A stretch of DNA of 40,000 nucleotides from Candidatus Acidiferrales bacterium (GTDB lineage: Bacteria; Acidobacteriota; Terriglobia; Acidiferrales; UBA7541): NCBI GenBank assembly GCA_050747005.1, contig JBOGNE010000027.1, forward strand, positions 7,847 to 47,846, read 5' to 3'. Positions 6,134 to 22,308 of the stretch are shown here, in pieces; the first letter of the stretch is position 1; each line of letters begins with the position of its first letter. Below the pieces are notes generated by a model. It saw only the letters and a program-made list of their open reading frames with translations, searched no databases and was not told where the DNA came from. The position numbers were made by a program, and so were the translations under genes.

Positions 6134-6142
6134 AGGAACGGC

Positions 6143-8471: not shown

Positions 8472-8486
8472 CCAAACCGCCAAACG
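8472..8486. repeat. Left copy of the 15-bp direct repeat ccaaaccgccaaacg (putative target-site duplication)
   Basis: An identical 15-mer recurs at 22294..22308 in the same orientation. It overlaps the TIR tips by 1-2 nt, so the real duplication is 12-15 bp. The bases just outside the 15-mer differ between the two copies. Confidence 0.75.
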
Positions 8487-8556
8487 GGGTTAGGGGATAG
8501 GCGACCTTGAAACTGCCCTCTTTGCTGCAAAATGGTGCATTTCTAGGAGATAGTGC
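8486..8556. repeat. Left terminal inverted repeat (71 bp) of the casposon
   Basis: ggggttaggggataggcgaccttgaaactgccctctttgctgcaaaatggtgcatttctaggagatagtgc is the exact reverse complement of 22225..22295 (hand alignment, 71/71). Confidence 0.9.
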
Positions 8557-8598
8557 GCGGCGCAACTTCCCACTGGTGCGGCAATGATGCGAGCCGCA

Positions 8599-8902
8599 CT
8601 ACGCAATCCAGGAATCGAAGTTGATGTGAATCCCGAGCACATGATTACCCCGTTTAATGCTTTTGAAGATTTCATAGTGAACCCATCGCCGTGCCCACGT
8701 ATCGGAACCGATCAGGACTACCGTTACAGTCGTATTTTCTAATTCCGCTTTAATCAGTCGCTTTAATGCTGACGGACTTGTATTCTTCTCCTCCTCCCTG
8801 GGGGCGGAGTCGTGTATTACTTTTGTGGTGGATTCTACGACGGACTTGGTAATTTGCCCCAAGACTTCGGACGCGAGAGATGAAGGACTCGGTTCCGTTC
8901 AC
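8599..8902 (-). pseudogene. TIR-like (DUF1863 / MTH538-type, ThsB-like) domain gene, apparently frameshifted
   Basis: The track ORF 8599..8862 (TTG start) encodes only the C-terminal half of a DUF1863-type TIR-like domain (TTVTVVLIGSDTWARRWVHYEIFKSIKRGNHVLGIHI). The expected N-terminal strand (MNGTESFISRVRSL) lies in another frame, starting at a GTG (8900-8902) that overlaps the upstream stop codon as GTGA. The two frames meet at a GGGG run (8857-8860). Confidence 0.4.
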
Positions 8903-9318
8903 TTCGCAACTGGACAACTCCAAACTTGTAGCAGGCTCCTCGTGATAATCCAGCCCGCTTTGTCTGCTCGCTGCTCTGGATGGTCCTTCATATACTTGAT
9001 AACGACGTCGACGATCTGCCCGATAGTTGCCGCGTTCGGAACACAAATTGCGTTGAGTTTCCAAAACGATTTGTCGTCCGTCGCGGCTACAGCGCCTTGC
9101 AGACTTCCAATCATGTCGACAGCGCCCTCTATGTAAGCGATGCAGAAGCTATACTGAACGGAGTTAGTGTCTGCGGTACAATGATCGAATAAATCGTTCC
9201 CCGTTTCCCAGGCCCACCCGTCCGTCGTGTTCGGCGAAATGACGTGAGGGTTTTGTGCCCAAAGACAAGTTCCCGCTAAGCAGAAGCTCAAAATGCTGAC
9301 GGCCAATCTAAGTTTCAT
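8899..9318 (-). CDS. Secreted Rap1a/Tai4-like (T6SS amidase-effector immunity family) protein
   Basis: Signal peptide (MKLRLAVSILSFCLAGTCLWAQ) from the ATG at 9318. The pattern GNDLFDHC...FCIAYIEGAVDM...ICVPNAATIGQIVDVVIKYMKDHPEQRADKAGWIITRSLLQVWSCP matches my recollection of the Rap1a immunity-protein consensus. Confidence 0.55.
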   Translation of the reverse strand: MKLRLAVSILSFCLAGTCLWAQNPHVISPNTTDGWAWETGNDLFDHCTADTNSVQYSFCIAYIEGAVDMIGSLQGAVAATDDKSFWKLNAICVPNAATIGQIVDVVIKYMKDHPEQRADKAGWIITRSLLQVWSCPVAK

Positions 9319-9541
9319 TTTCCTCTCGCTCCTCTCAGAAGGACCGATATTGAATCGGATCATGGTGAATCAAATTTCTGGTGTAAGTAAGCGCGAAGTA
9401 AACACTCGGTTCCCGTGTTCTGTCAAGGCGAGTGCGCGCGGGATCGGGCAGTTGGAGAGAAAGTACGGTAAGCGGGATGCACCCCTAGGCGAATGTTCGG
9501 ATCGTACAAATGGGCAGAGCGTTTGAGCGGTGGCATGGAGT

Positions 9542-10090
9542 TCAGCGACCACGACGGCCAATCATCTTCACCGTGACGGCTTCAGTAGTTCGCGGGCCGA
9601 CGTATTTTTCCTTATAGTCCTCAATGATAATACTGCCTTCAAATATTGCCTTCAATTGCCCGGCCCTCGGCAATTCTCGGAAATTGCCCCCTCTGCCTGA
9701 CACCGTCTCCAAAAGCATACAACCGCTCGGAATAAGGGATTCCACTATGCGCGGGAAAAGCTTCCACGGAAGGAAATCAACGATGATGATTCCCCCAAGC
9801 GTGGACGCTGCAAAGGGCCACGGTTCTTTCAACACATCTAGCAGCAGAACTTTCAGTCGATCCTGGCTTCGCAAATCAAGTTCCGGTTTCCGCCGGAAAT
9901 GCGTCAACTCCTTGTCGATGCATATGACCTTACATCCCATCTGCAAGATGAATAGGGAATTGCGTCCGGAACCACACCCAATATCGGCAATCGGAAAGCC
10001 GCGCGCCGACTCGTTAAGGAATTGGGCAAAACGCCTTACGTACGCGGATGGTTTCGAGCGTGGCTGAATCGGATTGGAAGTAACGCACAC
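9542..10090 (-). CDS. Class I SAM-dependent methyltransferase
   Basis: Motif I is IADIGCGSGRNSLFILQMGCKVICIDK. GTG start. It lies 42 nt downstream of hxsC on the same strand. Confidence 0.75.
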   Translation of the reverse strand: MCVTSNPIQPRSKPSAYVRRFAQFLNESARGFPIADIGCGSGRNSLFILQMGCKVICIDKELTHFRRKPELDLRSQDRLKVLLLDVLKEPWPFAASTLGGIIIVDFLPWKLFPRIVESLIPSGCMLLETVSGRGGNFRELPRAGQLKAIFEGSIIIEDYKEKYVGPRTTEAVTVKMIGRRGR

Positions 10091-10132
10091 CTTGGCATCT
10101 CGTCTTTCTTATTGAGTATAAATTGGCTCGAA

Positions 10133-11290
10133 TTAAAATGGTTTGATGTGGTCGCTATATCGATACATCTTCGACGATGAGAAGAATCCACCGCATTCAC
10201 TCCGCCGACCACAGGAACCACAGCATTCTAGATACTCGTTCTTCCAGTCGCTTATTGATTTGCGATAGTTGCCTTCCACGTCCGCGTTCACAACGCATAA
10301 TTGATGGTTATAGACGGACGCCCGTATACCGTAAGCATTGAGCACAGCGATGGCTTGGCTCAAAGTCTCTTTATATTCATAGGGGTCGATCCAAAGAAGT
10401 TCGAGGTTGGCACGGGTGAACCCGGTAATTTCGAGACCCATGAGCGCGACATGATCGACAAACAACAAGTTCCGACAAAGGAACTCACACGTCTGCACGA
10501 GGCGTCCGATCGTTTGTTTGTGCAAGACGATCCTGACTTCGACTCGTTGACCGAATCGCTTTAGATTCAGAATCCCCTGAATGGTTTCGTCGAATGCACC
10601 ATCAGCCTGCACGACATAATCGTGACGGACGGGATCATCGGAGTACACGGGTATTGCCACAGTGCAACTAGGATGATCAACTTTCGCAAATCGTCGTGCA
10701 TAGTCCTTGTCTTTGAATTTCCTGCCATTGCTTAGAAGATCGACCGATGTGTGCGGCAGCTGTAATTTTGCGTGTCTGACGAGATCAATCAAACGGTCGC
10801 CGTACAGCGTAGGCTCGCCGCCGGTAAACGCGATCCGGCGTGCGTCCTTTGGCATAAGACTTATCAAATTGAATGCTCTTCGCAACAAATGTGAATCCTC
10901 AATCTGTTTTGGGGGTTGAGAGCACATCAGACAGTAGTGGTTACACTGTTCGGTCAAAAGGATCGAATTGTTGAAGGAGTTCTTACGGAACAGAGTTTGT
11001 AGATAATTTCTGGCACCGTCTAGATGAACGATGTCGCCATTTGCAAGATAGCTGAAATGCGTAGGAAGAATATAGATATTGCCAGTGCGAAGCGGCTTGG
11101 AGCTTTCATTTAGATGACCAGATATTAGCTGGACTCCGTAACCCGTAACGTCTTGGGGCCTGTCGGTTAGGAGCGCAAAGCGCCCCCGAATCGGCAGCGG
11201 GAGCCCGGCATCACTGGTAATTACATATAGCGAGCTGGGGACGCCTGTCGCCTGTTGAATTGGATCAATGCGCCCGCCAAGCTTTAACAT
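10133..11290 (-). CDS. hxsC: His-Xaa-Ser system radical SAM maturase HxsC-like
   Basis: Radical SAM CxxxCxxC motif (CNHYCLMC, nt 10922-10945) and a Cys-rich C-terminus (CCGSCGRRSECGG). Its start overlaps the hxsB stop (ATGTTAA at 11284-11290). It sits in an HxsA/D/B/C context. Confidence 0.75.
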   Translation of the reverse strand: MLKLGGRIDPIQQATGVPSSLYVITSDAGLPLPIRGRFALLTDRPQDVTGYGVQLISGHLNESSKPLRTGNIYILPTHFSYLANGDIVHLDGARNYLQTLFRKNSFNNSILLTEQCNHYCLMCSQPPKQIEDSHLLRRAFNLISLMPKDARRIAFTGGEPTLYGDRLIDLVRHAKLQLPHTSVDLLSNGRKFKDKDYARRFAKVDHPSCTVAIPVYSDDPVRHDYVVQADGAFDETIQGILNLKRFGQRVEVRIVLHKQTIGRLVQTCEFLCRNLLFVDHVALMGLEITGFTRANLELLWIDPYEYKETLSQAIAVLNAYGIRASVYNHQLCVVNADVEGNYRKSISDWKNEYLECCGSCGRRSECGGFFSSSKMYRYSDHIKPF

Positions 11291-12768
11291 CTGTTAGCCC
11301 AATTCACAAAAAGCCGTCTCACAAATGGATCACTTCTCATTGATTCGATGAGGTGCCGACAGATTGCCATGTTTCGGCGGCAAAATTCAGATTCCGGCTT
11401 TAACCCTACGTGATCGCCATGGGTCGCCCAATGAAACACAGGGTCGGCGCCACAATAGGGCTCAAAGGCGCAATCGTGGCACATGGGATTGCTGTACGCG
11501 AACGAATCCTCCAAAGGATTAATTAAGCTTGGCGATAGAAAAATGTCCTCATATGAATGCTGTCGGACGTGTCCAAGTCGAAAATGATGATCTCCCATTT
11601 CGGCGAGCATTCGACTTTCATCGGATGCATAAACGTATCCATCGTAATTGTAGACTACGGCAGCGATGCCAATGCCAGCAGGACTCATCAAATCGACGTA
11701 ACCTGGATCGCGACTCGTGAACATTTTGGCCAGAATTGTACTCGCATAGAACTCGGTAAAAGCTATTCCTTGTTTGTTGAGGCTGATTACGTACTCTAGG
11801 CCCTGCTTATAAAAATCGAGCCATCGGTCCGTGTTATAGCGCATGTAAGACTTCGTCTTGATTGCGAAGCCGTACGGCGAAAGAGGCCGGAGGAATATTC
11901 TGTCGAAGCGCTGTAAGAGGTATTCGTCAATAATGTCCTTCACTCGACCAAGACTTCGTTCAGTGGTGGTCATCAGCGCTCCAACCCTATCGCTCCCGAT
12001 AAACTCTCGCGCCGTCCGAATTCCGTCTATTGTTCTTTCGTAGCTATCTCCTCCGGGCCGCGGTCGATTCGAATTGTGCAAATCCTGAGGGCCGTCTAGG
12101 GAGGTCGAGATATTGATCTCGTGCTCAGCACAAAAGGTAAGGATATCGCGATCAACCAGAGCCAGATTCGTCGCAATGACAAATTCGATCCGTTTGTCGA
12201 CGTTGCGGCGCTCTGCTTCCCGAACGATATGCGCAATCAAAGGAAAATTCAGTAGCGGCTCGCCGCCTTGGAACTCAATCTTGATAGTGGAAGCGGGAGA
12301 GCGTAACGCGAGGCCTAATGCTGCGTCGGCATCAGTGACCGACATGTCAAATTGGATCTTGTTGTCAGATTGTCGGGACACCTGACAGTACTGACAACTG
12401 TGTTCACACCGAAGTGTGACAACAAAAAGATGTAATCCCGTAAAATCTGCGAGTCGTTCATACCTGCTACGCAGCTTAATTGCCAATAAGTCAGGCGCTA
12501 AACGCGTACTGTCGTCCGTGAGGAAATGCCGGGCGCGCAAATCGATATAGACAGCACTCTCGTCTGCCAATTGGTGGTTGATTAGTTGGCGGAGTTCGTT
12601 CTTAGGGAGGACCAGAAAGTCGCCAGCAATGTTCGAAAGTACGTACTCGGTATCGTTTAGCTCGGTAAAACGGAACGGTAGGAGGCGATAGTCATGGGAC
12701 CTAGGTTTGTAGGATTCGATTTGATGAAATTCACTCATCAGCGATGAGGCCCGTTTTCGAAAAAACAT
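11284..12768 (-). CDS. hxsB: His-Xaa-Ser system radical SAM maturase HxsB-like (rSAM with SPASM-like C-terminal Cys cluster)
   Basis: CxxxCxxC motif (CEHSCQYC, nt 12385-12408), GGEPLL, and C-terminal CHDCAFEPYCGADP. The alternative ATG at 12738 (MSEFHQ) is equally possible. It overlaps the end of hxsD. Confidence 0.75.
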   Translation of the reverse strand: MFFRKRASSLMSEFHQIESYKPRSHDYRLLPFRFTELNDTEYVLSNIAGDFLVLPKNELRQLINHQLADESAVYIDLRARHFLTDDSTRLAPDLLAIKLRSRYERLADFTGLHLFVVTLRCEHSCQYCQVSRQSDNKIQFDMSVTDADAALGLALRSPASTIKIEFQGGEPLLNFPLIAHIVREAERRNVDKRIEFVIATNLALVDRDILTFCAEHEINISTSLDGPQDLHNSNRPRPGGDSYERTIDGIRTAREFIGSDRVGALMTTTERSLGRVKDIIDEYLLQRFDRIFLRPLSPYGFAIKTKSYMRYNTDRWLDFYKQGLEYVISLNKQGIAFTEFYASTILAKMFTSRDPGYVDLMSPAGIGIAAVVYNYDGYVYASDESRMLAEMGDHHFRLGHVRQHSYEDIFLSPSLINPLEDSFAYSNPMCHDCAFEPYCGADPVFHWATHGDHVGLKPESEFCRRNMAICRHLIESMRSDPFVRRLFVNWANRC

Positions 12769-13030
12769 GAGCGAGAATGAGATTTCGAATCGGCTCGGTC
12801 TCCGCCTTCAATTTGAGGCGTAGGTCCTGGTCGAGTACCTCTTTCTTAAGACGGTCTACTTGGGCCTGTGCCGTTACCTCTGAAACGTTGTCGCTAAAGG
12901 TGAGATGGCAGATGATGCTGCGGTCGGATATTTCGATATCCGGCGTGAAACGGTCAAGAAATACGTAGCATGCCGCCTTAACTGCATCTACTGAGAAAAC
13001 TGTCAAGTCGAAGCTGACATCTATCGTCAT
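12731..13030 (-). CDS. hxsD: His-Xaa-Ser system protein HxsD-like (small accessory protein)
   Basis: 99-aa ORF between hxsA and hxsB, in the position HxsD occupies in the described cassette. The segment EVLDQDLRLK loosely resembles the family signature I recall (LLNDYxLRE). The assignment is mainly by context. Confidence 0.55.
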   Translation of the reverse strand: MTIDVSFDLTVFSVDAVKAACYVFLDRFTPDIEISDRSIICHLTFSDNVSEVTAQAQVDRLKKEVLDQDLRLKLKAETEPIRNLILAHVFSKTGLIADE

Positions 13031-13126
13031 AGTGATGCCGTCGAAGTGTGATGAGAGATTTCTCGCGACTGATTCCCATCACGGCTGCTCTCGCCCCTCC
13101 GTACAAAACTGGAGATGACGCCGCGT

Positions 13127-13465
13127 TTAGAAACCGGAGGAGTGGGACGAATGCGAACTGTGAGACGAATGAGAATCATGGGACGACGAACCGTGGGACG
13201 AGTGCGAGACATGAGATGAGTGCGATCCATGTGAAACATGCGATGAGTGCTGCGCCGAAAGCACCCCATCCGACAGCTTCAACAGAAGAGCATGCTCTTC
13301 GCCGTTACTCAGATAATGGTGCGCGAAAGTCTTAGCCGCCGATAATTGGGAGACATCGGGGGCACTCTCGATTATGGCCTCAGGCTTAGCAGTCACTTTG
13401 GAAGCGTTCACGGCAACAACGCTCGCAGCCACGCTAACTGGAATAAGAAATTTGTAGCGCTTCAT
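13127..13465 (-). CDS. hxsA: His-Xaa-Ser repeat protein HxsA (putative secreted precursor)
   Basis: The ATG at 13465 is preceded by GGAGG. Signal peptide MKRYKFLIPVSVAASVVAVNA. The C-terminal tract is HSSHVSHGSHSSHVSHSSHGSSSHDSHSSHSSHSSHSSGF. Confidence 0.8.
   Translation of the reverse strand: MKRYKFLIPVSVAASVVAVNASKVTAKPEAIIESAPDVSQLSAAKTFAHHYLSNGEEHALLLKLSDGVLSAQHSSHVSHGSHSSHVSHSSHGSSSHDSHSSHSSHSSHSSGF
13136..13249 (-). repeat. Tandem short-period (6-9 nt) coding repeat specifying the His-Xaa-Ser tract of HxsA
   Basis: On the plus strand the tract reads as reiterated (g/c)gag(t/a)g / cga(a/t)tg units. It translates as about 12 H-x-S / H-S-S units. Confidence 0.7.
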
Positions 13466-13487
13466 TTGAACCTCCACGATCCCTAGC

Positions 13488-13516
13488 GTTATAGACCTAG
13501 GGCAGGTACTTGTCCA
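13488..13516 (-). promoter_or_regulatory. Putative sigma70-type promoter of the hxs operon
   Basis: The minus strand reads TGGACA, then a 17-nt spacer, then TATAAC (-35 at 13511-13516, -10 at 13488-13493). This lies about 20 nt upstream of the hxsA GGAGG/ATG. The spacer and -10 overlap a ccctag...ctaggg palindrome (13481-13502). Confidence 0.3.
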
Positions 13517-13689
13517 GTAATATCAGCGCCCGGCCCAGCTCGTCCGTCGGATTACGCGCGCCGAATTGGCTCCATTGGCTGTCATGTTGCGTAATCGAAA
13601 CACAGACTGATTCAGTGATAGAAAAATTTAACTCTTTAAGAGTAATGCACCATTAGCTGATACATCATTTTTTGCGGTAAAGGTCACTT

Positions 13690-15231
13690 TCACTCATCCC
13701 GTGAGACACCAACGAGTTGTGCAAGGACTTGCCAATGCCTTGAATGAGGAATCCGGCGACCTTTGCGAATATCTACGGCGTATGAAATTGAAATGCCGAG
13801 CTTCGATGCCAACACGGAGAGCGTGAGACTCGGCAATCGGGATTGAATTTCGTTCTCGTAAGTTTCCTTGGTGAGCCATTCCGGGTTCATCGATTCCTTC
13901 CATGCATACCGGGCAGTGGCGTGTCCTTGTTGTGTTTTTCCCCGGTGAGCTTGTGCCTGATCACTTTGAGCGGCTACACGTCCCTTTACTGCGGCTTTGA
14001 TAAGCCCGGCAGTAGTCAGAGTCATTGAACAGCTTGCGCAGTACGTGCGACCTCGTGGTATCGCTATTGTGCAGACGCGACAGAAACTTTCCGGACGGGG
14101 AGCCTTTGAAGGAGATGCCGGTAACACCCCTTTGACTTCGCAACGGTGAAGCTGCGTTAACCGCGTTGCCAGACGGGGCTTGCTGCTCGCTTTTCGTATG
14201 GTCAACCATAGCGCCTGTGCAACCCATTCTGCTATGGGCGCGACCGCACCGGACCAAGTGGCGGCAGTTTCAGAAAGCCGACCGGCGAACGATCCCATAA
14301 GACGGCAGTTGCCATCACGCTGCTCAAAGAACCATTCACGCCTAAGAGTTTCCCGGCTGATCCATTCCAACACATAGCGATCTACTTGCGGGCGAATTGG
14401 TTCCATGACATCGCATGCGAGGCTGTCATGGGCCGGTGAGTCGGTGTGCAACACTCCGAGACCGGGATCGAGTCCAAGCGCGGATATGGCCAACCGCGTT
14501 TCCGATTCCAGTAGTGCATAGAGATAATTGAGCATTGCGTTTGCAGGGTTTGCCGCGAGCCGAGGTGATCCCGTTAACGGCGAAAAACGAGTGCCGAAAA
14601 CTCGCCAATGTTCGGGAACTCGGTGAAGATCGCTCTTCGAAAAATTAATCGCACGATCTCTCCATGCGCCCCAATAGAAGCGTGCCGCCCGCGATTCGAG
14701 CAACCGAATAGCTCCAATGCTCTGCGCCGTCGCAATTCCCGGGCGAATCTGGGAGATGAGTTGCGCTACCGTTTCGTCCTGCAAGCTGACGCGAGCGACT
14801 TTTTCCTGTGCGTCCAATTTTCGGATGATCAATTCTCGGGCGATCTCTAACGCAGCCCCCGAATGACTAGCAAGCGCTTGAGCACGTCGCAATCGAGCAT
14901 CGGACGGTCGCACCGGGCCGGTCGTGGCAAGCACTGACCCGTCCCGCTCAAGCATAATGAAAGAAGCATCTTGATCAGCCAACCAACGGAGTGCAGCAAG
15001 CGATACCATTCCGTCGGCTCCAATTACCACGAGGCGGCGGATTCCATGGCCCACGCGAGCGAAACGGCCTTGACGGCGCACAACACCGATCCCGTCCCGC
15101 ATGCATAAGTGACCACGATCAACATGCACGTTGATACCGTAACCAAAGAGGGTAATGACACCGTACTCGGGTTTGATTGGCGTGAAATTGCAGTGGTGAG
15201 GCGGATGCGGTAGGGTCTGCGTAGCTGCCAT
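13690..15231 (-). CDS. cas1: Cas1-family integrase (casposase) with C-terminal Zn-ribbon and HTH
   Basis: The Cas1 core is NAMLNYLYALLESETRLAISALGLDPGLGVLHTDSPAHDSLACDVMEPIRPQVD, so catalytic E, H and D/E are present. The C-terminal part carries CRVCTIAIPRGRTYCASC plus the HTH-like LSVLASKLGISISYAVDIRKGRR. The ATG at 15231 is preceded by AAGGAGG. The track GTG start at 15315 is an alternative. Confidence 0.85.
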   Translation of the reverse strand: MAATQTLPHPPHHCNFTPIKPEYGVITLFGYGINVHVDRGHLCMRDGIGVVRRQGRFARVGHGIRRLVVIGADGMVSLAALRWLADQDASFIMLERDGSVLATTGPVRPSDARLRRAQALASHSGAALEIARELIIRKLDAQEKVARVSLQDETVAQLISQIRPGIATAQSIGAIRLLESRAARFYWGAWRDRAINFSKSDLHRVPEHWRVFGTRFSPLTGSPRLAANPANAMLNYLYALLESETRLAISALGLDPGLGVLHTDSPAHDSLACDVMEPIRPQVDRYVLEWISRETLRREWFFEQRDGNCRLMGSFAGRLSETAATWSGAVAPIAEWVAQALWLTIRKASSKPRLATRLTQLHRCEVKGVLPASPSKAPRPESFCRVCTIAIPRGRTYCASCSMTLTTAGLIKAAVKGRVAAQSDQAQAHRGKTQQGHATARYAWKESMNPEWLTKETYENEIQSRLPSLTLSVLASKLGISISYAVDIRKGRRIPHSRHWQVLAQLVGVSRDE

Positions 15232-16184: not shown

Positions 16185-16733
16185 ATGGCTAAGAGAGAAC
16201 AAAAGAAGCAAAGGCACGGAGCTAGAAAGTCTCGTGAAACCGCAGCGAAAACGCTGAATGATTTTTCATCAAGATCAACGACATTTCAGGACACGTGGAA
16301 TCGGGTCACTCACGCAGTCTCGAAAATGCGGTCACACGGAATGTCGCTCAAAGAGGCTTCGCGCGAGTTTGGCCTGAACCCGCGCACAACTCTGCGACTG
16401 GGAAAGCCAGCACTGCGGAAAAACAAGAGTGGACGATATGTGGCTAAAGCCAGTGACAAACTCCTGCGAGTTCTGGTTTTGCCAACTGAGAAGGGTGTGC
16501 GCGAGATAGCAGTGCGCAGTTCAAAGGAAGCAAGTCTTATCGGGGAATATTGGGCAGCCGTCCAAAAGTACTTGGCAACGGGCGATGTATCACGCCTGAA
16601 GAAAATTCGCCGCAAGACCATAAGGGATGCCAATCGCAAACGGCTTCCACTACTAACCAACCTGGAGAAATTAGACCAGCAGGCATCGGCGGGAATTCTC
16701 GGGTTCGAATCGATCTATGGGGGAATTGCCTGA
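16185..16733 (+). CDS. Hypothetical HTH-containing protein
   Basis: 182-aa basic ORF with an HTH-like segment (MSLKEASREFGLNPRTTLRL). It is the first gene of the plus-strand polB operon and is divergent from 15332..16129. Confidence 0.5.
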   Translation: MAKREQKKQRHGARKSRETAAKTLNDFSSRSTTFQDTWNRVTHAVSKMRSHGMSLKEASREFGLNPRTTLRLGKPALRKNKSGRYVAKASDKLLRVLVLPTEKGVREIAVRSSKEASLIGEYWAAVQKYLATGDVSRLKKIRRKTIRDANRKRLPLLTNLEKLDQQASAGILGFESIYGGIA

Positions 16734-17231
16734 ATGCCGAAGAAGGTTCCGCCTCGCGATCCGGTTCTCGCACTTCAGCGCAAAGCGATTGCGTCACGGA
16801 GGGTTGGAAATCAGAAATGTGCGAAATGCGGGGAGTCTAGAGCCGAGGCGTTAGTCGCTGGCACCAAACCGATGCTCTGCGCGGCATGCCAGCGGCGGAA
16901 ACAGCGCAAGAGCAGACTAGACGCTCATCACCCAGCGGGAAGAGCCAATGGTCGCGCCACGATTACGATGCCTGTTAACGACCATCGCGCTGCATTGAGT
17001 GTTGCTCAATACGACTGGCCCGAAGAGACATTGGAAAATTCGGATGGTAGTCCGCTTCTCGCGGCTGCAGCACACATTCGCGGATTCATCGACATGCTGT
17101 ATTACATGATCGACAAATTCCTCGCCTGGATTCCCGATCTTCTCGAATACCTTAACTCACTGCTGACCAAGTCGCGCGGTCGCAAATGGTGGCGAAGTAC
17201 AAAGTTGGACCGATTTGCGCCAAAGCGATGA
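16734..17231 (+). CDS. Zn-ribbon / HNH-like nuclease-motif protein
   Basis: CAKCGE...CAACQRR is followed by DAHHPAGRANGRATITMPVNDHR (an H-N-H-like spacing). Its ATG abuts the upstream TGA (16731-16736), and its stop overlaps the polB ATG (ATGA at 17228-17231). Confidence 0.45.
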   Translation: MPKKVPPRDPVLALQRKAIASRRVGNQKCAKCGESRAEALVAGTKPMLCAACQRRKQRKSRLDAHHPAGRANGRATITMPVNDHRAALSVAQYDWPEETLENSDGSPLLAAAAHIRGFIDMLYYMIDKFLAWIPDLLEYLNSLLTKSRGRKWWRSTKLDRFAPKR

Positions 17232-20200
17232 AAATCTCAGCTCCGCACGCTCCGTTACCCATTGCGATCCGTGTTTTTTCCAAATTGGTAAAGAAACAAA
17301 CCGAGACAGGTCGAAGCACACATTGGAGACTGCCAGATGCGATGCTCGTCTTTGACACCGAAACGCGAATAGACGCGACACAACGCCTCACGTTTGGAAG
17401 CTATAGGTTCTTCGAGAGCGGTCAATGTATCGAGGAAGCGTTGTTCTGCGCTGACGATCTACCTGCGAAAGACTGGAGAGCACTCTCACGTTATGCCAGG
17501 TCACACCGAGCCGCAGTCGTGGGAGCACGGCATATCCGGTTGCTGACGCTGACTGAGTTTCTGGACCGATTTTATCGACTGACGTACAAAAGCCGGTGCC
17601 TTGTCGTCGGATTCAATCTACCATTCGATATGTCCAGGATCGCTCGGGATTCTGCCGCTGCACGAGGTCGTTTCGCAGGAGGATTCTCTCTAGGGTTGTG
17701 GACGTACCGTGACAACCAGGATTGCGAGCACCCGAGCACCTATCGGCCCAGATTTGCTACAAAGCAAATCGATAGCAAACGAGCCCTAAAGGGCTTCACT
17801 GCATGCTTCAAGCCCGATAAGACCGACCTTATCCCAGAGGGTTCTTCGAGCGGGAAGCCCGAAGAGGGATACAAGTTTCGGGGTCACTTCTTAGACTTGC
17901 GTACGCTGGCCTTTGCACTTACTGATGAAAGCTATTCTCTCGAGTCCGCGTGCGAGGTGTTCGGTGTCGAGCACCGCAAGGCAAAAGCTTCTCGTCATGG
18001 CGAGATCACTGAGGAATACATCGATTACAACCGGCGCGACGTTTTGGCGACTGCGGAACTCGCAGTCAAACTCCTTGAAGAATACGAGCGTCACCCTATC
18101 AAGCTACAAGCGACCAAAGCCTATTCACCAGCTTCAATCGGCAAAGCCTATTTGCGCGCAATGGGAGTTGCGCCAATCCTTGAGCGACAGCCACACTTTC
18201 CGAGGAAATTTCTCGGGTACGCGCAGTCTGCATTTTTCGGCGGACGTACCAGCGCTCACATTCGCAAAGCGCCTGTCCCTGTTGTATACGTCGATTTCCT
18301 ATCAATGTATCCGACAGTGAACAGCCTTATGAACCTCTGGCGATTTGTCATGGCAGAGCAAATCAAAATTGTCTGTCATTGCCAACGAGAAATTCGGTCG
18401 TTTCTGAAGCGTTTGACTCGTGCAGAGCTATTCAAGCCCGAAACGTGGACCCGACTGCCAGCATTTGTGAAGATCATTCCAAACGACGACATCCTTCCAA
18501 GTCGGAGCCAATACAGTCTGCAGACGAATGATTGGCAAGTTGCTGTCAATTACTTATATGCGAAAGGCAGCAAGCGAAACGATGGTTTGTGGTACTCGCT
18601 GCCGGATGTAGCGGCAAGTGTTCTTCTCACCGGGAAGGTGCCGAGGATCGTTGACGGGTTTCGCCTTGAAGCACGCGGAGTTCGCGAACGCCTCAAAGCA
18701 GTAAAGCTGCGGGGCGCTGTGAGAGTTGATCCGAGAAAACAAGATTTCTTTAGGGTTGTCATCGAAGAGCGTAAACGCGCATCCTCACGAGCCGACCTGT
18801 CAGAGACGGAAGAGAGACGTCTCGATAAGGCACTGAAAGTTCTCGCGAACGCAGCGAGTTATGGCATCTACGCGGAGATGAACCGGCAGGAATCGGACAA
18901 GAAAGTCAGAGTAAATTGCTACGGAATAGATGCGAAATCATTTTCGTGTTCTGTCTCACATCCAGACGTTCCGGGGGAATATTGTTTTCCACCGCTTGCG
19001 TCGCTCATTACCGGAGCGGCTCGCCTGATGCTCGCGCTACTCGAATCTTGTGTCACGGAGATAGGCGGAACTTACGCGATGGAAGACACTGATTCTATGG
19101 CAATCGTCGCAACCAAGCACGGCGGACTTGTTGCGTGTCCTGGCGGACCGCTTCGAAGTCGCAACGATAAGGAGGCGATCACAGCGCTATCTTGGTTACA
19201 GGTTCGAAAGATTTCAGAACAATTCGCTGCGCTTAACCCATACAAGAAAACAGCGATACCCGGATCGATTCTCAAGATTGAGGAAGATAATTTTGATCCG
19301 AAGACACATAGGCAGCGACAGCTTTACTGTCTAGCGATCTCCGCTAAGCGGTATGCACTATTTTTGCTGAATCGCAAACGTGAGCCTGTTCTGTTGGAGC
19401 GTGGCGTCAACAATCGCAAAGACAGATGGTCTGAGCATGGCTTAGGCCATCTCTTAAATCCAAGCAATCCCGACAGCGAGGATCGCGATTGGATTGGACA
19501 ATCATGGCTCATGTTAATTCGACGCAGCCTCGCACTCACAACGAAGAGACACAGATTCGAGACTCTACCGGCAATTGGACGGATTACACTGAGTAGCCCG
19601 CTAGTCATGCGCCCCTTCATCGCTTTCAACACGGGGAAGCCGTACGCGGACCAAATCAAACCGTTCAACTTTCTCTTAACCTGTCACGTTGCCCCACTCG
19701 GCCATCCCGTTGATTGTCAGCCGGCGGATTTCCACCTCGTCTCGCCTTTCGAACTCAATTCCAAGAAGTGGCTGGGAATGGAGTGGTTGAACCTCTACAC
19801 AGGAAAGCGATATCGGATCACAACGGTTGGACATCATGGTACGCGCCACGCAGCGCGCGTGAAGACCTATGGCGACGTGCTAAGTGAGTACGAATTTCAC
19901 CCAGAATCGAAGTGCGCAGATGCAAACGGGCAAATATGCAGGAGAGAAACACTTGGCTTACTGCAACGACGGCGCGTTCAGATCGACGCGATCAAATACA
20001 TCGGGAAAGAATCGAATCAGCTAGAGAACGTTCACGCGGGTTTAATCCACTCGGAGAAAAGTGTCTACACCGAATACACAGATGCGAGACGCGATGAATG
20101 GGCAACGAAATTATTGCCGGTGTTGAGAAAACCCCCGTTGAGGGTTCTCGTAAGGAAGTGTCGCGGTCGTATCTCTCGCAGAGCACTGATTGAAATGAGA

Positions 20201-20269
20201 GCCGGACGAAGCAGTCCGCATCGAAAGAATCAAGAAATCCTTAGGACGGTTGCTCTCACTTTCGATTAA
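17228..20269 (+). CDS. polB: Family B DNA polymerase (casposon PolB)
   Basis: Motifs: Exo I LVFDTETRID, Exo II YNRRDVLAT, Pol A VYVDFLSMYPT, Pol B KVLANAASYGIYAE, and Pol C YAMEDTDSMAI (DTDS at nt 19085-19096). The start at 17228 is chosen for the ATGA coupling. The track start is 17186. Confidence 0.85.
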   Translation: MKISAPHAPLPIAIRVFSKLVKKQTETGRSTHWRLPDAMLVFDTETRIDATQRLTFGSYRFFESGQCIEEALFCADDLPAKDWRALSRYARSHRAAVVGARHIRLLTLTEFLDRFYRLTYKSRCLVVGFNLPFDMSRIARDSAAARGRFAGGFSLGLWTYRDNQDCEHPSTYRPRFATKQIDSKRALKGFTACFKPDKTDLIPEGSSSGKPEEGYKFRGHFLDLRTLAFALTDESYSLESACEVFGVEHRKAKASRHGEITEEYIDYNRRDVLATAELAVKLLEEYERHPIKLQATKAYSPASIGKAYLRAMGVAPILERQPHFPRKFLGYAQSAFFGGRTSAHIRKAPVPVVYVDFLSMYPTVNSLMNLWRFVMAEQIKIVCHCQREIRSFLKRLTRAELFKPETWTRLPAFVKIIPNDDILPSRSQYSLQTNDWQVAVNYLYAKGSKRNDGLWYSLPDVAASVLLTGKVPRIVDGFRLEARGVRERLKAVKLRGAVRVDPRKQDFFRVVIEERKRASSRADLSETEERRLDKALKVLANAASYGIYAEMNRQESDKKVRVNCYGIDAKSFSCSVSHPDVPGEYCFPPLASLITGAARLMLALLESCVTEIGGTYAMEDTDSMAIVATKHGGLVACPGGPLRSRNDKEAITALSWLQVRKISEQFAALNPYKKTAIPGSILKIEEDNFDPKTHRQRQLYCLAISAKRYALFLLNRKREPVLLERGVNNRKDRWSEHGLGHLLNPSNPDSEDRDWIGQSWLMLIRRSLALTTKRHRFETLPAIGRITLSSPLVMRPFIAFNTGKPYADQIKPFNFLLTCHVAPLGHPVDCQPADFHLVSPFELNSKKWLGMEWLNLYTGKRYRITTVGHHGTRHAARVKTYGDVLSEYEFHPESKCADANGQICRRETLGLLQRRRVQIDAIKYIGKESNQLENVHAGLIHSEKSVYTEYTDARRDEWATKLLPVLRKPPLRVLVRKCRGRISRRALIEMRAGRSSPHRKNQEILRTVALTFD

Positions 20270-20316
20270 ACAGTGGAACTGTTCAGCGAACATGCGCCAA
20301 GGCCACGAATTGGTTC

Positions 20317-21819
20317 TCAGGCGGCCTTCGAGCCAGACGGCTTGTTATCGTCGCGAGCGTCGATAACCACGACATTTTCCTTGTTGTCGAGCTTCAGTCT
20401 TTTCAGAATATCTTCCAAACGGTTTTGTTCAGCTTCAGAGAAAAACAGAACCACCTTTATGGACTTCCGCGCATCGCTTGCTTTCTGGTATATCTGAGTT
20501 TGGTGTTGAAGATTCTTTTCGAGTTGAGAATTGCTTGCAAGCTTAAATTCGACTATTGATTTGTCTGTACTGCCGCGTGATATTTTGTAGTCGGCTGGTC
20601 CCCGCCCATCGTTCACTTCGCGACTTACGTCTGATGGCGTGGCGTACCACGTAAACCTATAAAGAATGTGGGCATCGCTTTCGCGTTGCAATAGTTGGCC
20701 CTTAACGTAGAAGATTTTGTGGCCGCCCTTGTTTTCAATTACGTCCTTAAGGAAGCGGACCCGACAGAGCGCTTCGTCATAAGTTCGTCCGCTGTTGCGG
20801 TAGAACTCTGACTGTCGGGCGAGCAAGTCAACTAGTCGTCCAAATTGCTCATGGTAAAGAGTTTCGGATGATTTAACTCTTCTGGAACTTATGCTTTCGG
20901 CTTCCCGTCCTAGTTGTTCCTTTCGCCGAATGAAATAGTCGATTATTTTCGGGAAGTGGTAGATGGTCTCGCTAGCGGCGTTACGTCGTTGCTTAGGCGT
21001 TGCCTTCTCTGGAAGAACTCTAATGAAGTAATTGTTAATTTTTGCTCGCAACTCCGTATTGGAAACGGAATCGCACAATCTTTCAAAATCGGTGACAAGG
21101 TCCGCTCGGTTGATCCAGGTGTTCTCTTTCGCCAGCATATCCTTGGGAGTGAGCAAGACATAGTCGTCCTTGAAACATGGCAATACAAACTCTTGTGAAT
21201 GCCAAGTCTCAGTACCGTAAATGAAGCGCACCCGAGGAACTGAGAATCTTCTCTTCAACCGAGGATGAATAAAGCGCTTGGCAAAGGCTTCCGTGTACTT
21301 CAGCAAGAAGCGCTTTATTAGATTTGTTGTGAAGTCGCTGATGTTGTCCTTCCCAACTCCATCGTCTATTAGGCAGAGTTTTTCAAGATGACTGCCGCGC
21401 GAAACATTCTCGTTCCCAAATTCCGAAAAAATGCGGTGAAGGTTTCTGTGAAGTGTGTTCGCGAACTTGCTGCCCAACCCACGTCCTTTGTTGCCCTCCG
21501 CAGTGAAACCGAGCCAGTTCTGATCAACTTCTGGAAAGCGATAGAGCGACTGTATCAATCCAGGATCCAAATGCGAGGCGGCAGATTTTCGCTTAAGAAA
21601 TCTCAGATATTTGATTATATCTTTGTGCAGTTTACGATACTGCGACTTTCGACTGTTGAACAGAAGAAAAGGGTCGATAAACAACGGAAGGTCAGAGACG
21701 AGGGAAATATCAAACGCGCCGTACGATCTTAGTTGTGAGGCGGACACTTCAAAGAAGTCTGAAAAGTACAGCCTCATTTGAGAGCCGCCATCTTCCTCAG
21801 GGATTTCTTTCCCAGGCAT
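20317..21819 (-). CDS. Hypothetical protein with C-terminal PD-(D/E)xK-like nuclease motif
   Basis: 500-aa ORF (alternative ATG at 21777, MRLYFSDFF). The C-terminal segment GRGPADYKISRGSTDKSIVEFKLASNSQLEKNLQHQTQIYQKA fits a D...ExK...Q..Y restriction-endonuclease-like core. The N-terminal 400 aa are unrecognised. Confidence 0.5.
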   Translation of the reverse strand: MPGKEIPEEDGGSQMRLYFSDFFEVSASQLRSYGAFDISLVSDLPLFIDPFLLFNSRKSQYRKLHKDIIKYLRFLKRKSAASHLDPGLIQSLYRFPEVDQNWLGFTAEGNKGRGLGSKFANTLHRNLHRIFSEFGNENVSRGSHLEKLCLIDDGVGKDNISDFTTNLIKRFLLKYTEAFAKRFIHPRLKRRFSVPRVRFIYGTETWHSQEFVLPCFKDDYVLLTPKDMLAKENTWINRADLVTDFERLCDSVSNTELRAKINNYFIRVLPEKATPKQRRNAASETIYHFPKIIDYFIRRKEQLGREAESISSRRVKSSETLYHEQFGRLVDLLARQSEFYRNSGRTYDEALCRVRFLKDVIENKGGHKIFYVKGQLLQRESDAHILYRFTWYATPSDVSREVNDGRGPADYKISRGSTDKSIVEFKLASNSQLEKNLQHQTQIYQKASDARKSIKVVLFFSEAEQNRLEDILKRLKLDNKENVVVIDARDDNKPSGSKAA

Positions 21820-22189
21820 GGTGGCACAGAATATAGCATCGATTCGCAGTTTGGAGGATTCGACAACAGCCGCGCGGCAAGATCGAGCCCAGGATCGTTC
21901 CCAGACTGCGTTAAGCCGCTTACAGAAACTCGCACGCAGCGTTCGTTTACATCAGTTAAGCCAGACGAAAAGTCATCGATAGCAAACGATGGTCAAGACA
22001 TTGTATTCAAAGGGAGTTATCGAAAAGCTAGATTACGAAATTTTAGAACAAGCAGCTCGTCTAAAAAATCTCGCTGTACACGGGCTCAAAATCCCGCCAA
22101 TCGATGGCGGGCTGATGCAGCAGTGGCGACTTATCGTTGTGAACCTGCTCTATAGAGTTGAACGATATCCTACCAGCAACAGGACGTAA
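21818..22189 (+). pseudogene. Small HEPN-like ORF interrupted by an in-frame TAG (or two separate mini-ORFs)
   Basis: The track ORF 21989..22189 (MVKTLYSKGVIEKLDYEILEQAARLKNLAVHG...) contains an R-x6-H segment (RLKNLAVH) reminiscent of the HEPN Rx4-6H motif. A 54-codon ORF starting at ATG 21818 is in the same frame and ends at TAG 21980-21982, only 2 codons before the ATG at 21989. Confidence 0.25.
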
Positions 22190-22224
22190 CCAATTGTGGG
22201 TCGCTAAGAGCGCGCGTTCGCGAA

Positions 22225-22295
22225 GCACTATCTCCTAGAAATGCACCATTTTGCAGCAAAGAGGGCAGTTTCAAGGTCGCCTATCCCCTAACCCC
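22225..22295. repeat. Right terminal inverted repeat (71 bp) of the casposon
   Basis: Exact reverse complement of 8486..8556. Confidence 0.9.
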
Positions 22296-22308
22296 AAACC
22301 GCCAAACG
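22294..22308. repeat. Right copy of the 15-bp direct repeat ccaaaccgccaaacg (putative target-site duplication)
   Basis: Identical to 8472..8486 and in the same orientation, immediately outside the right TIR. Confidence 0.75.

Follow-up and report, generated by a model that had tools for sequence, protein, structure and literature searches.

What kind of DNA separates gltX from a divergently transcribed signaling gene in the chromosome of a soil 'Candidatus Acidiferrales' bacterium (Acidobacteriota), and how recently did it arrive there? The window, the whole stretch of 40,000 nucleotides that we analyzed, contains a 13,810-bp segment at 8486-22295 that an initial annotation had read as a complete casposon, a transposon moved by a Cas1-type integrase and replicated by a DNA polymerase of its own. 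Our results agree with that reading: the segment carries a standalone Cas1-family integrase, a family B DNA polymerase (PolB), terminal inverted repeats (TIRs) and a 15-bp target site duplication (TSD). We put the probability at roughly 0.88 that it is a complete family-3-type casposon inserted in the region of divergent promoters that separates gltX from a GAF-GGDEF gene.

Ends of the element

8472-8486: left TSD copy, 15 bp, CCAAACCGCCAAACG, read directly and identical to 22294-22308
8486-8556, + strand: left TIR, 71 bp, tip GGGGTTAGGGGATAGG, 100% complementary to 22225-22295
22225-22295, - strand: right TIR, 71 bp, 100% complementary to 8486-8556
22294-22308: right TSD copy, 15 bp, matching the left copy at 15/15 positions

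Realignment of the two TIRs gave 71 matches in 71 positions, and recomputation of the duplication bore out the report of a directly oriented 15-mer, CCAAACCGCCAAACG, at both edges, where it shares 1-2 nt with the TIR tips. The repeat is not a dispersed one: with up to 3 mismatches allowed, the 21-nt TIR tip occurs at two sites in the window, which are the element ends, against a chance expectation of 0. The tip resembles those of sister elements described below (GGGATAGG / GGGGTA) and of the family 3 casposon NitAL212-C1 (GGGGTATG); the latter begins GGGGTA and the tip studied here GGGGT. No notable hairpin was found in the left TIR. The GC content is 0.511 within the element and 0.578 outside it.

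Core proteins

13690-15231, - strand: casposase of 513 aa, Cas1 domain with C-terminal zinc ribbon and helix-turn-helix (HTH); PF01867, TIGR00287; ORF readable to 15315
15332-16129, - strand: core ORF p265, conserved in a subset of sister elements, no assigned function
16185-16733, + strand: core ORF p182, putative HTH protein, first gene of the p182-p165-polB operon
16734-17231, + strand: core ORF p165, zinc ribbon and HNH-like motif, from motif conservation in homologues
17186-20269, + strand: family B DNA polymerase of 1027 aa; PF03175, exonuclease and polymerase motifs intact, motif C EDTDS

The casposase ORF spans 13690-15315 on the minus strand, and its likely true start yields the 513-aa product at 13690-15231. 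The Cas1 and PolB assignments both hold in HMM searches. For Cas1, PF01867 (E=1.4e-42) and TIGR00287 (117.7 bits, cutoff 71.7) match, and the catalytic constellation reported earlier (E207, H290, D302 and E305) is invariant in 24 family members, as are the zinc-ribbon cysteines C412, C415, C426 and C429; the match to the HTH of the C-terminal tail is weak (HTH_3, E=0.0027). The closest solved relative is 6OPM (6e-23), the Cas1-solo protein of Methanosarcina mazei, which has been studied as a casposase (PMC6977970).

The polymerase matches PF03175 as its sole Pfam model (E=5e-7, passing the curated cutoff), and 23 relatives show no variation in its Exo I, II and III, Pol A, B and C, and KxY motifs. 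Searches with sequence profiles only just detect solved structures. In a Foldseek search with an AlphaFold model (pLDDT 62.5), 133 family B polymerases of solved structure were recovered at E<=0.001, with RNA/DNA-primed and protein-primed enzymes matched about equally, at low TM-scores and from a model of moderate confidence. The Pfam, motif and fold results thus agree with the original call of a family B polymerase with Exo and Pol A/B/C motifs. Copying of the element would putatively be carried out by this polymerase, which shares its operon with the small HTH and zinc-ribbon/HNH-like proteins.

In p165 the motif C..C...CxxC...DxHH...N...NDH is invariant in 15 homologues, no library model matches the protein, and it occurs only together with PolB subtype 1; the HNH-like label given to it at first therefore stays plausible but unproven. 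The product of p182, which adjoins PolB in most sister elements, gives weak HTH matches (HTH_28, E=0.019, sub-threshold). No match to p265 was found in the family-model libraries searched; tblastn matched it at 58-64% identity in four sister elements (L007, L009, L060 and L064).

Placement among casposons

The Cas1 has 361 relatives in genomes, and the best 80 of these 361 are all from Acidobacteriota. In about 75 of 79 relatives Cas1 and PolB keep their synteny, with a conserved core order of PolB-[p165]-p182-[p265]-Cas1, and about 30 sister elements bear TIRs of their own with 14-20-bp TSDs, the repeats being 89 to 100% perfect. The nearest described casposase is that of AceAut-C1 (46% identity), which likewise has a C-terminal zinc-binding domain and HTH; other family 3 members are 35-40% identical, and identities fall to 24-30% for family 2, 22-25% for family 1 and 18-27% for CRISPR Cas1. 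In a neighbor-joining tree of 285 columns and a small reference set, the acidobacterial clade received 100% bootstrap support, the clade together with family 3 received 89%, family 3 without the clade received 2%, and the sister grouping with AceAut-C1 received 58%. By its Cas1 sequence, then, the element is placed inside the known bacterial casposon family 3, as a new member and not a new class. For published family 3 elements, lengths of 14.4-20 kb, TSDs of 14-15 bp and intergenic positions have been reported, and the element agrees in size, TSD length and position.

A separate family, apart from families 1-4 and the proposed family 5 and marked by acidobacterial hosts, a near-protein-primed polymerase and promoter-adjacent targeting, strikes us as improbable. 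The clade is monophyletic and shares just 35-46% identity with the described casposases of family 3, the protein-primed model is the only one in Pfam that its polymerase matches, the position of Exo I at residues 38-65 leaves no space for an N-terminal domain, and the literature that we searched holds no promoter-like target motif for casposons. However, the nesting within family 3, the casposase architecture shared with AceAut-C1 and the GGGGTA tip shared with NitAL212-C1 all argue against separation. So does motif C of the polymerase: the consensus of the clade, CDTDS, is that of the 'PolB_CDTDS' cluster, which holds the family 2 polymerase of A. boonei and is reported to be related to the main as well as the protein-primed PolBs (PMC7544198). 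With membership in family 3 preferred, the earlier remark that such an element is unusual for bacteria was overstated, since bacterial casposons of 14-20 kb have been described in this family since 2014 (PMC4046053) and the acidobacterial clade is very abundant. In the casposon literature we found no description of an acidobacterial clade with anti-phage cargo.

The single Pfam match of the polymerase also bears on whether this is a casposon at all, because PF03175 matches the primer-independent PolBs of pipolins too. Pipolins, like this element, have been reported to carry defense genes (PMC11551731). A pipolin-like or integrase-driven island, or a degenerate CRISPR-Cas locus, in which a solo cas1 and a polB met by chance is nevertheless very hard to sustain. 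Among the ORFs no recombinase other than the casposase was found, and neither a tyrosine or serine recombinase nor a DDE transposase lies between the repeats; the element is bounded by inverted repeats and a TSD instead of direct att repeats; the window contains no tRNA gene and, as first reported, lacks cas2, any other cas gene and any CRISPR-like array; Cas1-PolB synteny recurs in the relatives, each with its own TIRs and TSD; and the Cas1 groups with casposases and not with CRISPR Cas1. A non-casposon island or CRISPR-Cas remnant is contradicted by all of these tests.

Host locus and choice of target

6804-8444, - strand: gltX (glutamyl-tRNA synthetase), host flank; PF00749, PF19269; divergent from the right-flank gene
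22309-22314, + strand: TTGACC, -35-like hexamer in the host flank; abuts the TSD
22416-25826, + strand: GAF-GGDEF-HD(-GYP) signaling protein, host flank, from domain matches

Orthologues of the GAF-GGDEF protein with 95% and 81% identity (P0242 and P0243) led us to empty sites in relatives, where the same gene block at a syntenic position is absent. In L088, whose flank protein is 95% identical, the homologues of the window up to 8464 and from 22298 onward are joined with a single target copy, and the TTGACC hexamer is kept. In L089 and L090, gltX lies directly beside the GAF-GGDEF gene and the element is absent, the synteny DsbD-redoxin-frataxin-DsbD_N-gltX, 284 bp, GGDEF-OsmC-FabH being retained. 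Because the flanks are directly joined with one target copy in close relatives, these are empty sites and the insertion is real.

The sister elements show where the clade inserts. Their TSDs end at TTG[AT]C in 32 of 34 cases (5% by chance), and TAnnnT follows 16-18 nt past this motif in 29 of 32, compared with 3.1% of control sites (p=5e-41). Across the approximately 30 sister elements, the TSD thus ends at what resembles the -35 box of a σ70-like promoter, TTGAC-N17/18-TAnACT; long co-oriented ORFs begin 24-273 nt downstream at 23 of 25 sites, and the elements often sit upstream of aminoacyl-tRNA synthetase genes. The motif probably acts as a promoter, and, as the duplication stops at the -35 box, the downstream promoter would stay intact. 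Targeting of this kind is not described in the casposon literature that we searched. Whereas in most sister elements the TTGAC motif is the end of the TSD, the copy in the window is off-register: the motif falls immediately beyond the TSD and is followed, at a spacer of 19, by a poor -10-like box (TAGAGG). A generic sigma-70 scan called no promoter at either element junction.

By analogy with archaeal casposases and CRISPR Cas1, the casposase would bind the TIR tips and attach the TIR 3' ends to the two strands of the target at points separated by about 15 bp; repair of the gaps would then yield the 15-bp duplication. In the clade, insertion is positioned so that the duplicated segment ends at the TTGAC -35 box, with the window copy out of register.

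Cargo

8599-8862, - strand: ThsB-type TIR-like domain ORF, 87 aa, possibly truncated; PF08937 ThsB_TIR E=3.8e-17, model positions 20-96 of 100
8899-9363, - strand: Rap1a-like immunity-protein homologue with an N-terminal signal-like segment; PF18602 Rap1a E=1e-17
9542-10090, - strand: small SAM-methyltransferase-like protein, weak assignment; Methyltransf_25 E=2e-4 (below cutoff), PADLOC mad2 E=4.7e-7
10133-11290, - strand: HxsC, radical SAM maturase of HXS; TIGR03977 E=1.5e-112, 375 bits, cutoff 268
11284-12768, - strand: HxsB, radical SAM/SPASM maturase of HXS; TIGR03978 E=6e-181, 602 bits, cutoff 370
12731-13030, - strand: HxsD; TIGR03976 E=2.8e-15, 56.5 bits, cutoff 50
13127-13477, - strand: HxsA2 effector precursor; NF038296 E=4.9e-14, 53.1 bits, cutoff 48
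20317-21819, - strand: DUF8370/DUF8371 protein, candidate defense family PDC-M36A; PADLOC PDC-M36A E=3.8e-22, precomputed Pfam DUF8370/8371

The cargo lies on two arms of 5.1 and 2.0 kb, about 7.1 kb in total, which corrects the approximately 9 kb estimated at first and is a normal amount for the acidobacterial clade. The His-Xaa-Ser (HXS) system, an anti-phage defense (PMC13128918), is complete here with its four genes (HxsA2, HxsB, HxsC and HxsD). PDC-M36A is also present in four sister elements. Judged from these family matches, the cargo appears to be mostly anti-phage (HXS, the ThsB-TIR fragment and the candidate PDC-M36A), and it probably pays for the upkeep of the element by protecting the host from phages. 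The C terminus of HxsA2 carries 12 His-Xaa-Ser repeats, and their coding repeats are the direct repeat and the tandem repeat picked up in repeat scans of the window.

Past and possible present mobility

The suggestion that the insertion is recent and possibly still mobile stands in part. The element is single-copy in its source sample: its Cas1 was found in no second genomic place, only in the MAG contig and a matching Logan contig. In the source run, SRR27067732, independent Logan contigs end exactly 30 nt inside the right TIR from both sides; the flank contig runs 30 nt into the TIR with no branch at the TSD, and the assembly therefore contains no empty allele. Both the empty site and the TIR tip were absent from the JGI metagenome and IMG/VR collections. 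These observations would suit a fossil, inserted by casposition and now fixed and immobile, from which the host keeps HXS, PDC-M36A and the ThsB-TIR fragment as a defense island. Such cargo is potentially useful to the host, and decay is common in the clade, as PolB ORFs are fragmented in many sister elements. This account is possible, yet we consider it doubtful. Its TIRs match at 71/71 positions and its TSD at 15/15, compared with 89 to 100% in sister elements; Cas1, PolB, p165 and p182 are full-length with every invariant residue present; and the site is empty in the relative with the 95%-identical flank protein. Moreover, casposon excision has been measured at just 1e-5 to 1e-9 per genome (PMC10359463), so the missing empty allele says little. 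Given repeats without a mismatch, intact genes and an empty site in a relative, we reasonably infer that the casposon is recent and may still be mobile. Two findings elsewhere in the clade speak for its mobility: one orthologous site is occupied by two unrelated element lineages, and a 9-kb core that is 98.5% identical occurs in two MAGs whose shared flank is just 90.8% identical, the two copies being oppositely oriented and differing in cargo.

Structure and integrity of the element

The most far-reaching reading of the element at 8486-22295, to which we give a probability of about 0.55, is that it belongs to a very abundant and apparently undescribed clade of soil Acidobacteriota casposons whose casposase would recognize the upstream boundary of sigma-70-type promoters that serve conserved housekeeping genes, in particular those of aminoacyl-tRNA synthetases, and would duplicate the -35 box so that the promoter survives, with the elements acting as exchangeable carriers of anti-phage genes. 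The CRISPR adaptation machinery has been proposed to descend from casposons. To our knowledge, only a handful of casposons have been described in bacteria, and the casposases studied biochemically are archaeal. The interest of the find rests on an intact bacterial copy that lends itself to testing, on the size of the clade, and on a promoter and synthetase gene target rule combined with defense cargo; bacterial casposons of such architecture were already known.

The initial annotation had described a complete casposon between terminal inverted repeats (TIRs) and a target site duplication (TSD), and this description was borne out. The arms at 8486-8556 and 22225-22295 are 100% complementary over 71/71 nt and form by far the longest inverted repeat that a repeat finder reported in the region. 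The TSD, the 15-mer CCAAACCGCCAAACG, lies in direct orientation at 8472-8486 and 22294-22308 (15/15 identical) and overlaps the G/C-rich TIR tips by 1-2 nt, and the empty site as reconstructed reads …TCTTTCTGG CCAAACCGCCAAACG TTGACC…. The terminal sequence of the element end is GGGGTTAGGGGATAGG. A generic dispersed repeat had been raised as an alternative; within the 40-kb window, the 21-nt tip GGGGTTAGGGGATAGGCGACC was found solely at the two element ends with 3 mismatches allowed, where chance predicts no occurrence. No TIR hairpin was detected beyond chance (z = -0.54). The G+C content is 0.511 between the repeats versus 0.578 outside.

Two contigs from an independent Logan assembly of the source run (SRR27067732) match the window perfectly, and each ends exactly 30 nt inside a TIR, one reaching it from the interior (L002) and the other from the flank (L087). 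Since a k=31 assembler is expected to break its de Bruijn graph at an inverted repeat, 30 nt (k-1) inside the TIRs is where such contigs should end; they confirm the TIRs and speak against a misassembly of the metagenome-assembled genome (MAG). We rejected the idea that L002 (13,728 bp, 100% identical to the element interior) is a free or excised copy, because it ends k-1 inside each TIR, as L087 does from outside. The matching MAG is 'Candidatus Acidiferrales' GCA_975253565.1 (Acidobacteriota). At window position 5448, in the redoxin gene, a C stands against an A in the public record CDHSOX010000046.1, the sole difference over the 21,542 bases compared.

The genes between the TIRs comprise a 6.6-kb core flanked by 5.1 and 2.0 kb of cargo.

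Genes between the terminal inverted repeats
8599-8862, minus strand: ThsB-type TIR-like ORF, 87 aa (ThsB TIR-like domain, 3.8e-17, from model position 20 on)
8899-9363, minus strand: Rap1a-like protein
9542-10090, minus strand: methyltransferase-like protein (weak match)
10133-11290, minus strand: HxsC (above the NCBIfam cutoff)
11284-12768, minus strand: HxsB (above the NCBIfam cutoff)
12731-13030, minus strand: HxsD (above the NCBIfam cutoff)
13127-13477, minus strand: HxsA2 (above the NCBIfam cutoff; 12 HxS repeats)
13690-15231, minus strand: Cas1 casposase, 513 aa (PF01867, 1.4e-42; TIGR00287, the cas1 equivalog, above cutoff)
15332-16129, minus strand: p265, unknown function
16185-16733, plus strand: p182, weak helix-turn-helix (HTH; matches below threshold)
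16734-17231, plus strand: p165, zinc-ribbon/HNH-like motif
17186-20269, plus strand: PolB (PF03175, above cutoff)
20317-21819, minus strand: DUF8370/8371 protein (PADLOC candidate PDC-M36A, 3.8e-22)

Profile searches with PF01867, TIGR00287, and PF03175 upheld the proposed stand-alone Cas1 and PolB. An alignment of 24 family members showed the catalytic residues E207, H290, D302, and E305 and the cysteines C412, C415, C426, and C429 of Cas1 to be invariant, and its C terminus carries zinc-ribbon cysteines followed by a weak HTH. The best solved relative is the Methanosarcina mazei casposase (6OPM, 6e-23), which ranks before every CRISPR Cas1. All exonuclease and polymerase motifs of PolB are invariant among 23 relatives, and its AlphaFold model (pLDDT 62.5) matches 133 solved family B polymerases. 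The p165 protein has no library model match; its invariant pattern C..C…CxxC…DxHH…N…NDH would fit a zinc-ribbon/HNH nuclease. Between the TIRs, no other recombinase or transposase was detected when every ORF of 80 aa or more was compared with Pfam, NCBIfam, and PADLOC. The claimed absence of cas2, other cas genes, and a CRISPR-like array from the 40-kb window likewise held, and the window contains no tRNA.

The empty site in relatives

The insertion is intergenic, between gltX (6804-8444, minus strand) and a GAF-GGDEF gene (22416-25826, plus strand), and the host flanks include LptD and DsbD. A search for an empty site in relatives had been proposed, and through orthologues of the right-flank GAF-GGDEF protein and their contigs we found three element-free loci. 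In L088, whose GGDEF protein is 95% identical, no more than 12 nt separate the homologue of window positions 8350-8464 from that of the sequence starting at 22298; the alignment shows a single target copy, CGAGACCGCCATGCG versus CCAAACCGCCAAACG in the window, and then the conserved TTGACCTCCACGAAAC. L089 and L090 (GGDEF protein 81% identical) have the order DsbD_TM-redoxin-frataxin-DsbD_N-gltX (minus strand), 284 bp, GGDEF (plus strand)-OsmC-FabH, which is that of the window with the element missing. The casposon at gltX/GGDEF is a real insertion, and these three loci rule out that relatives simply share the same gene block at a syntenic position.

A look-up of identical GltX and GGDEF proteins gave only the source MAG and its Logan twin. 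Neither the reconstructed empty site nor the TIR tip had an exact match in JGI metagenomes, and the TIR tip had none in IMG/VR, which is uninformative because the lineage is apparently unsampled there. A terminator-like hairpin (TCTGGAGCGCCGGA then TGTTTTCTGA) lies at 22341-22372, in the 5' leader of the GAF-GGDEF gene. Also in this leader, the stretch GTTTTCTGATATTCTC is conserved in L088 and L089, and so the leader may be regulatory.

Relationship to known casposons and related systems

For placement, reference Cas1 sequences were taken from the supplementary alignment of the 2014 casposon paper (PMC4046053), and a bootstrapped neighbor-joining tree with Kimura correction was built from 285 columns.

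Cas1 identity of the element and bootstrap support in the neighbor-joining tree
Identity to AceAut-C1 (family 3): 46%
Identity to other family 3 members: 35-40%
Identity to family 2: 24-30%
Identity to family 1: 22-25%
Identity to CRISPR Cas1: 18-27%
Bootstrap, acidobacterial clade monophyletic: 100%
Bootstrap, clade plus family 3: 89%
Bootstrap, family 3 excluding the clade: 2%
Bootstrap, clade sister to AceAut-C1: 58%

Because the Cas1 tree position and the published anatomy agree, we file the element under family 3, as a new member of a known family rather than a new class. Family 3 casposons, among them AceAut-C1, NitAL212-C1, HenMar-C1, and StrAlb-C1, were described in 2014 and 2016 from Proteobacteria, Actinobacteria, and 'Acetothermum', all at intergenic sites (PMC4046053, PMC4779613). 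The element shares with them a bacterial host, intergenic insertion, the Cas1 grouping at 89% bootstrap, size (14-20 kb versus 13.8 kb here), and TSD length (14-15 bp versus 15 bp here). The small HNH-type gene and the HTH gene expected beside polB may have counterparts here in p165 (by motif) and p182 (by subthreshold matches). NitAL212-C1 (14.4 kb, 14-bp TSD) has a 36-bp TIR beginning GGGGTATG, and the tip GGGGTA is common to both; AceAut-C1 of Ca. 'Acetothermum autotrophicum' has a 15-bp TSD and, like the element, a casposase with a C-terminal zinc-binding domain and HTH (PMC4046053, PMC4779613). The differences are that Acidobacteriota are absent from the described host phyla, that Cas1 identity is just 35-46%, that the acidobacterial clade is very abundant whereas described family 3 is sporadic, and that a promoter-like target motif and the His-Xaa-Ser (HXS) anti-phage cargo are found here.

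The family 2 elements AciBoo-C1 (Aciduliprofundum boonei) and MetMaz-C1 (M. mazei) share the integrase fold, an HTH-bearing casposase C terminus, a TSD of about 14-15 bp, and sequence-specific integration guided by sequence beside the duplicated segment (PMC6977970, PMC5137440, PMC6614799, PMC10359463). They differ in their archaeal hosts, in a Cas1 that is 24-30% identical and forms a separate clade, and in their targets, which are tRNA gene 3' ends or specific intergenic sites, not promoter -35 boxes. Family 1 (Nitrosopumilus; protein-primed PolB) likewise combines Cas1, PolB, TIRs, and a TSD, and PF03175 detects the polymerase here; its casposase is compact and without extra domains, its hosts are thaumarchaeal, and it inserts at the 3' end of the aEF-2 gene. 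The element's Cas1, by contrast, is 22-25% identical to that of family 1, falls in a separate clade, carries a zinc ribbon and HTH, and comes from a bacterium. The catalytic domain of the element's Cas1 is homologous to that of CRISPR Cas1-Cas2 and shares its E/H/D(E) active site; in both systems, integration is staggered and leaves the target duplicated, which in CRISPR is the repeat. An adaptation module has cas1 beside cas2 and an array; in the window there is no cas2, effector gene, or array, and instead the Cas1 protein continues into a zinc ribbon and HTH, and its gene is accompanied by a polymerase gene inside the TIRs. Pipolins, finally, are marked by a primer-independent PolB, a tyrosine recombinase, and direct repeats, often at a tRNA gene, whereas this element has no recombinase, its repeats are inverted, and there is no tRNA.

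The evidence on the polymerase type points in more than one direction. The protein-primed model PF03175 was the sole Pfam match, in 17/23 PolB members, and with Exo I at residues 38-65 the protein lacks an N-terminal domain. A Foldseek search with the moderate-quality model placed it equidistant between protein-primed and RNA-primed PolB types. Against solved structures, the single sequence gave no hit and a profile gave only marginal Pol alpha matches over motif C; tblastn against annotated plasmids and phages gave no match. Motif C reads CDTDS or CDTDA in 10/17 relatives of a second, more distant PolB subtype and EDTDS in the window's own. The family 2/3 casposon polymerase has been described as RNA-primed-like, and Kazlauskas et al. 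put that of the A. boonei casposon in a divergent 'PolB_CDTDS' cluster related to main and protein-primed PolBs (PMC7544198). The polymerase of the clade may belong, judging by these motifs, to the same divergent group as that of family 2.

An abundant and mobile clade

Relatives of the element are numerous. The protein collection holds 2,954 relatives of PolB and >5,000 of Cas1, of which the best 120 of each are at about 60-70% identity and are named at source only 'Cas1', 'DNA polymerase', or 'hypothetical protein'. A search with one genome per species gave 361 stretches that code for a relative, and the best 80 of these are all from Acidobacteriota (Acidiferrales, Terriglobales, Bryobacterales, and Vicinamibacterales). 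The initial annotation had considered an intact bacterial copy unusual; the copy is intact, but rarity did not hold, as family 3 with this architecture is established and relatives are abundant in Acidobacteriota. Bacterial casposons are thus common in soil Acidobacteria, and if the far-reaching reading given above is true they are no rare curiosities in bacteria. In the literature searched, we found no report linking casposons to Acidobacteria or to HXS.

The core PolB (minus strand)-[p165]-p182-[p265]-Cas1 (plus strand) is kept, with Cas1 and PolB syntenic, in about 75/79 loci. Two PolB subtypes can be told apart, at 58-66% and 28-38% identity to the window's PolB, and the p165 gene was found only with the first. 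About 30 loci have TIRs of their own (32-175 bp; tips GGGATAGG or GGGGTA) and 14-20-bp TSDs; the sister elements are mostly 12-19.5 kb long and carry cargo on both arms. In about 15 of the loci with sister elements (L003-L083), PolB is split into ORFs of 300-700 aa, a sign that these copies have decayed. Several genomes have two copies; recent duplication within the genome was rejected, since the copies are divergent, which points to independent acquisitions. The closest full-genome relative (L003/L006; OY970264.1, 985,711-1,007,330; Cas1 68% identical) has no detectable TIR pair; IS110-family and IS30-like (rve) transposase genes are inserted downstream of its Cas1, and its cargo includes GmrSD_N and FRG domain proteins.

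Two pairs of loci bear on mobility. L016 and L031, from MAGs of different species, share a 9-kb casposon core that is 98.5% identical (2546-11584 versus 2548-11584), whereas their orthologous flank is only 90.8% identical (1-2587 versus 17818-20373); the elements are in opposite orientation, and the cargo of the Cas1 arm does not align. This suggests recent horizontal spread or reinsertion (or TIR-mediated inversion) together with cargo exchange. L073 (21091-21587) and L082 (18393-18891) have 97% identical flanks at the same orthologous site, and the elements there come from unrelated casposon lineages, being unalignable and of different PolB subtypes. As far as alignments can tell, these comparisons show mobility and site specificity of the clade.

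By analogy with the casposases studied, Cas1 would attach the 3' ends of the TIRs to the two target strands at a stagger of about 15 bp, repair of the staggered joint would yield the TSD, and the element's own PolB is presumed to copy it. The element is likely to be recent and possibly active, given that its repeats are perfect, its genes are intact, and a close relative has the site empty. The assembly of the source run contains no empty allele; as the M. mazei casposon excises precisely but at a very low frequency (1e-5 to 1e-9 per genome; PMC10359463), this is no argument against activity. What makes in vitro integration experiments straightforward is that this bacterial copy is intact: its casposase has a zinc ribbon and HTH, its ends are perfect, its target is defined, and the site is empty in a relative.

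A promoter-like target

When 32 reconstructed empty sites were aligned by the TTGAC at which the TSD ends, the consensus was CCCC-N8/9-TTGAC, then 17 or 18 nt, then TAnACT. The TSD ends at TTG[AT]C in 32/34 cases (chance, 5%), and TAnnnT follows at a 16-18-nt spacer in 29/32 sites, compared with 3.1% of the 5,726 remaining TTG[AT]C sites of these loci (p=5e-41). Elements lie in both orientations (18 and 14), and a long co-oriented ORF begins 24-273 nt downstream in 23/25 sites. We infer that TTGAC-N17/18-TAnACT is a working sigma-70-like promoter. No tRNA lies within 600 nt of the 32 sites, and no Rfam family was found in the window or five loci examined for tRNA and ncRNA targets.

The downstream genes are mostly housekeeping: valyl-tRNA synthetase (4 sites: L021, L051, L069, and L072), threonyl-tRNA synthetase (2 sites: L047 and L080), a class II Asp/Lys/Asn-type synthetase (L013), a DUF4932 protein (4 sites), and rhomboid, NuoB, thiolase, an outer-membrane efflux protein, RodZ, trigger factor, two TPR proteins, and a GAF protein. 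Synthetase genes are strongly over-represented beside insertion sites, with 7/20 typed sites and 3/13 distinct loci (p=3e-5 for 3/13 if, as we assumed, they make up 0.5% of genes). Archaeal casposons, with their tRNA and EF-2 gene targets, come to mind here.

The window copy is off-register by 5 nt, with TTGAC directly outside the TSD (22309 on) and a poor -10-like box, TAGAGG, at a spacer of 19; a generic σ70 scan called no promoter at the insertion. It sits in a divergent promoter region and adjoins gltX, likewise a synthetase gene. The clade thus has a recognizable target rule beside essential-gene promoters, in parallel with the archaeal gene targets. If the far-reaching reading is true, this bacterial casposase follows a simple, mutable rule, CCCC-N8/9-TTGAC beside a -10 box, which could be used for probing how Cas1-family integrases read a 'leader-like' flank.

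Predicted anti-phage cargo

All four HXS components (HxsA, HxsB, HxsC, and HxsD) are present above the NCBIfam equivalog cutoffs. HXS has been shown to block phage DNA entry, and nearly all known systems occur in Pseudomonadota (99.7%) and have the order D-B-C-A (99.6%; Li et al. 2026, PMC13128918). The copy in the window (10133-13477) differs in lying inside a casposon of an acidobacterium, in its order A-D-B-C, and in its effector, an HxsA2-type protein that has 12 HxS repeats and in which a peptidoglycan-binding domain was not detected. We found no earlier report of HXS on a casposon in the literature searched. The HXS cargo is predicted to provide anti-phage defense for the host, and would here travel on a self-synthesizing transposon in a phylum where the system is almost unknown.

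PADLOC gave matches to defense-related families more widely: the 98 large cargo ORFs of 31 sister elements include TIR/ThsB-like proteins, defense-type reverse transcriptases, PDC-M36A, PDC-S66, dCTP deaminase, SAVED-TIR, and bSEFIR. By these profile matches, the clade appears to behave as a defense-gene carrier that shuttles anti-phage genes. The 87-aa ThsB-like ORF, the first one inward of the left TIR, may represent either a Thoeris-type gene that has been truncated or a mini-TIR protein that acts on its own. The DUF8370/DUF8371 protein with the PDC-M36A match (20317-21819) recurs as cargo in four sister elements.
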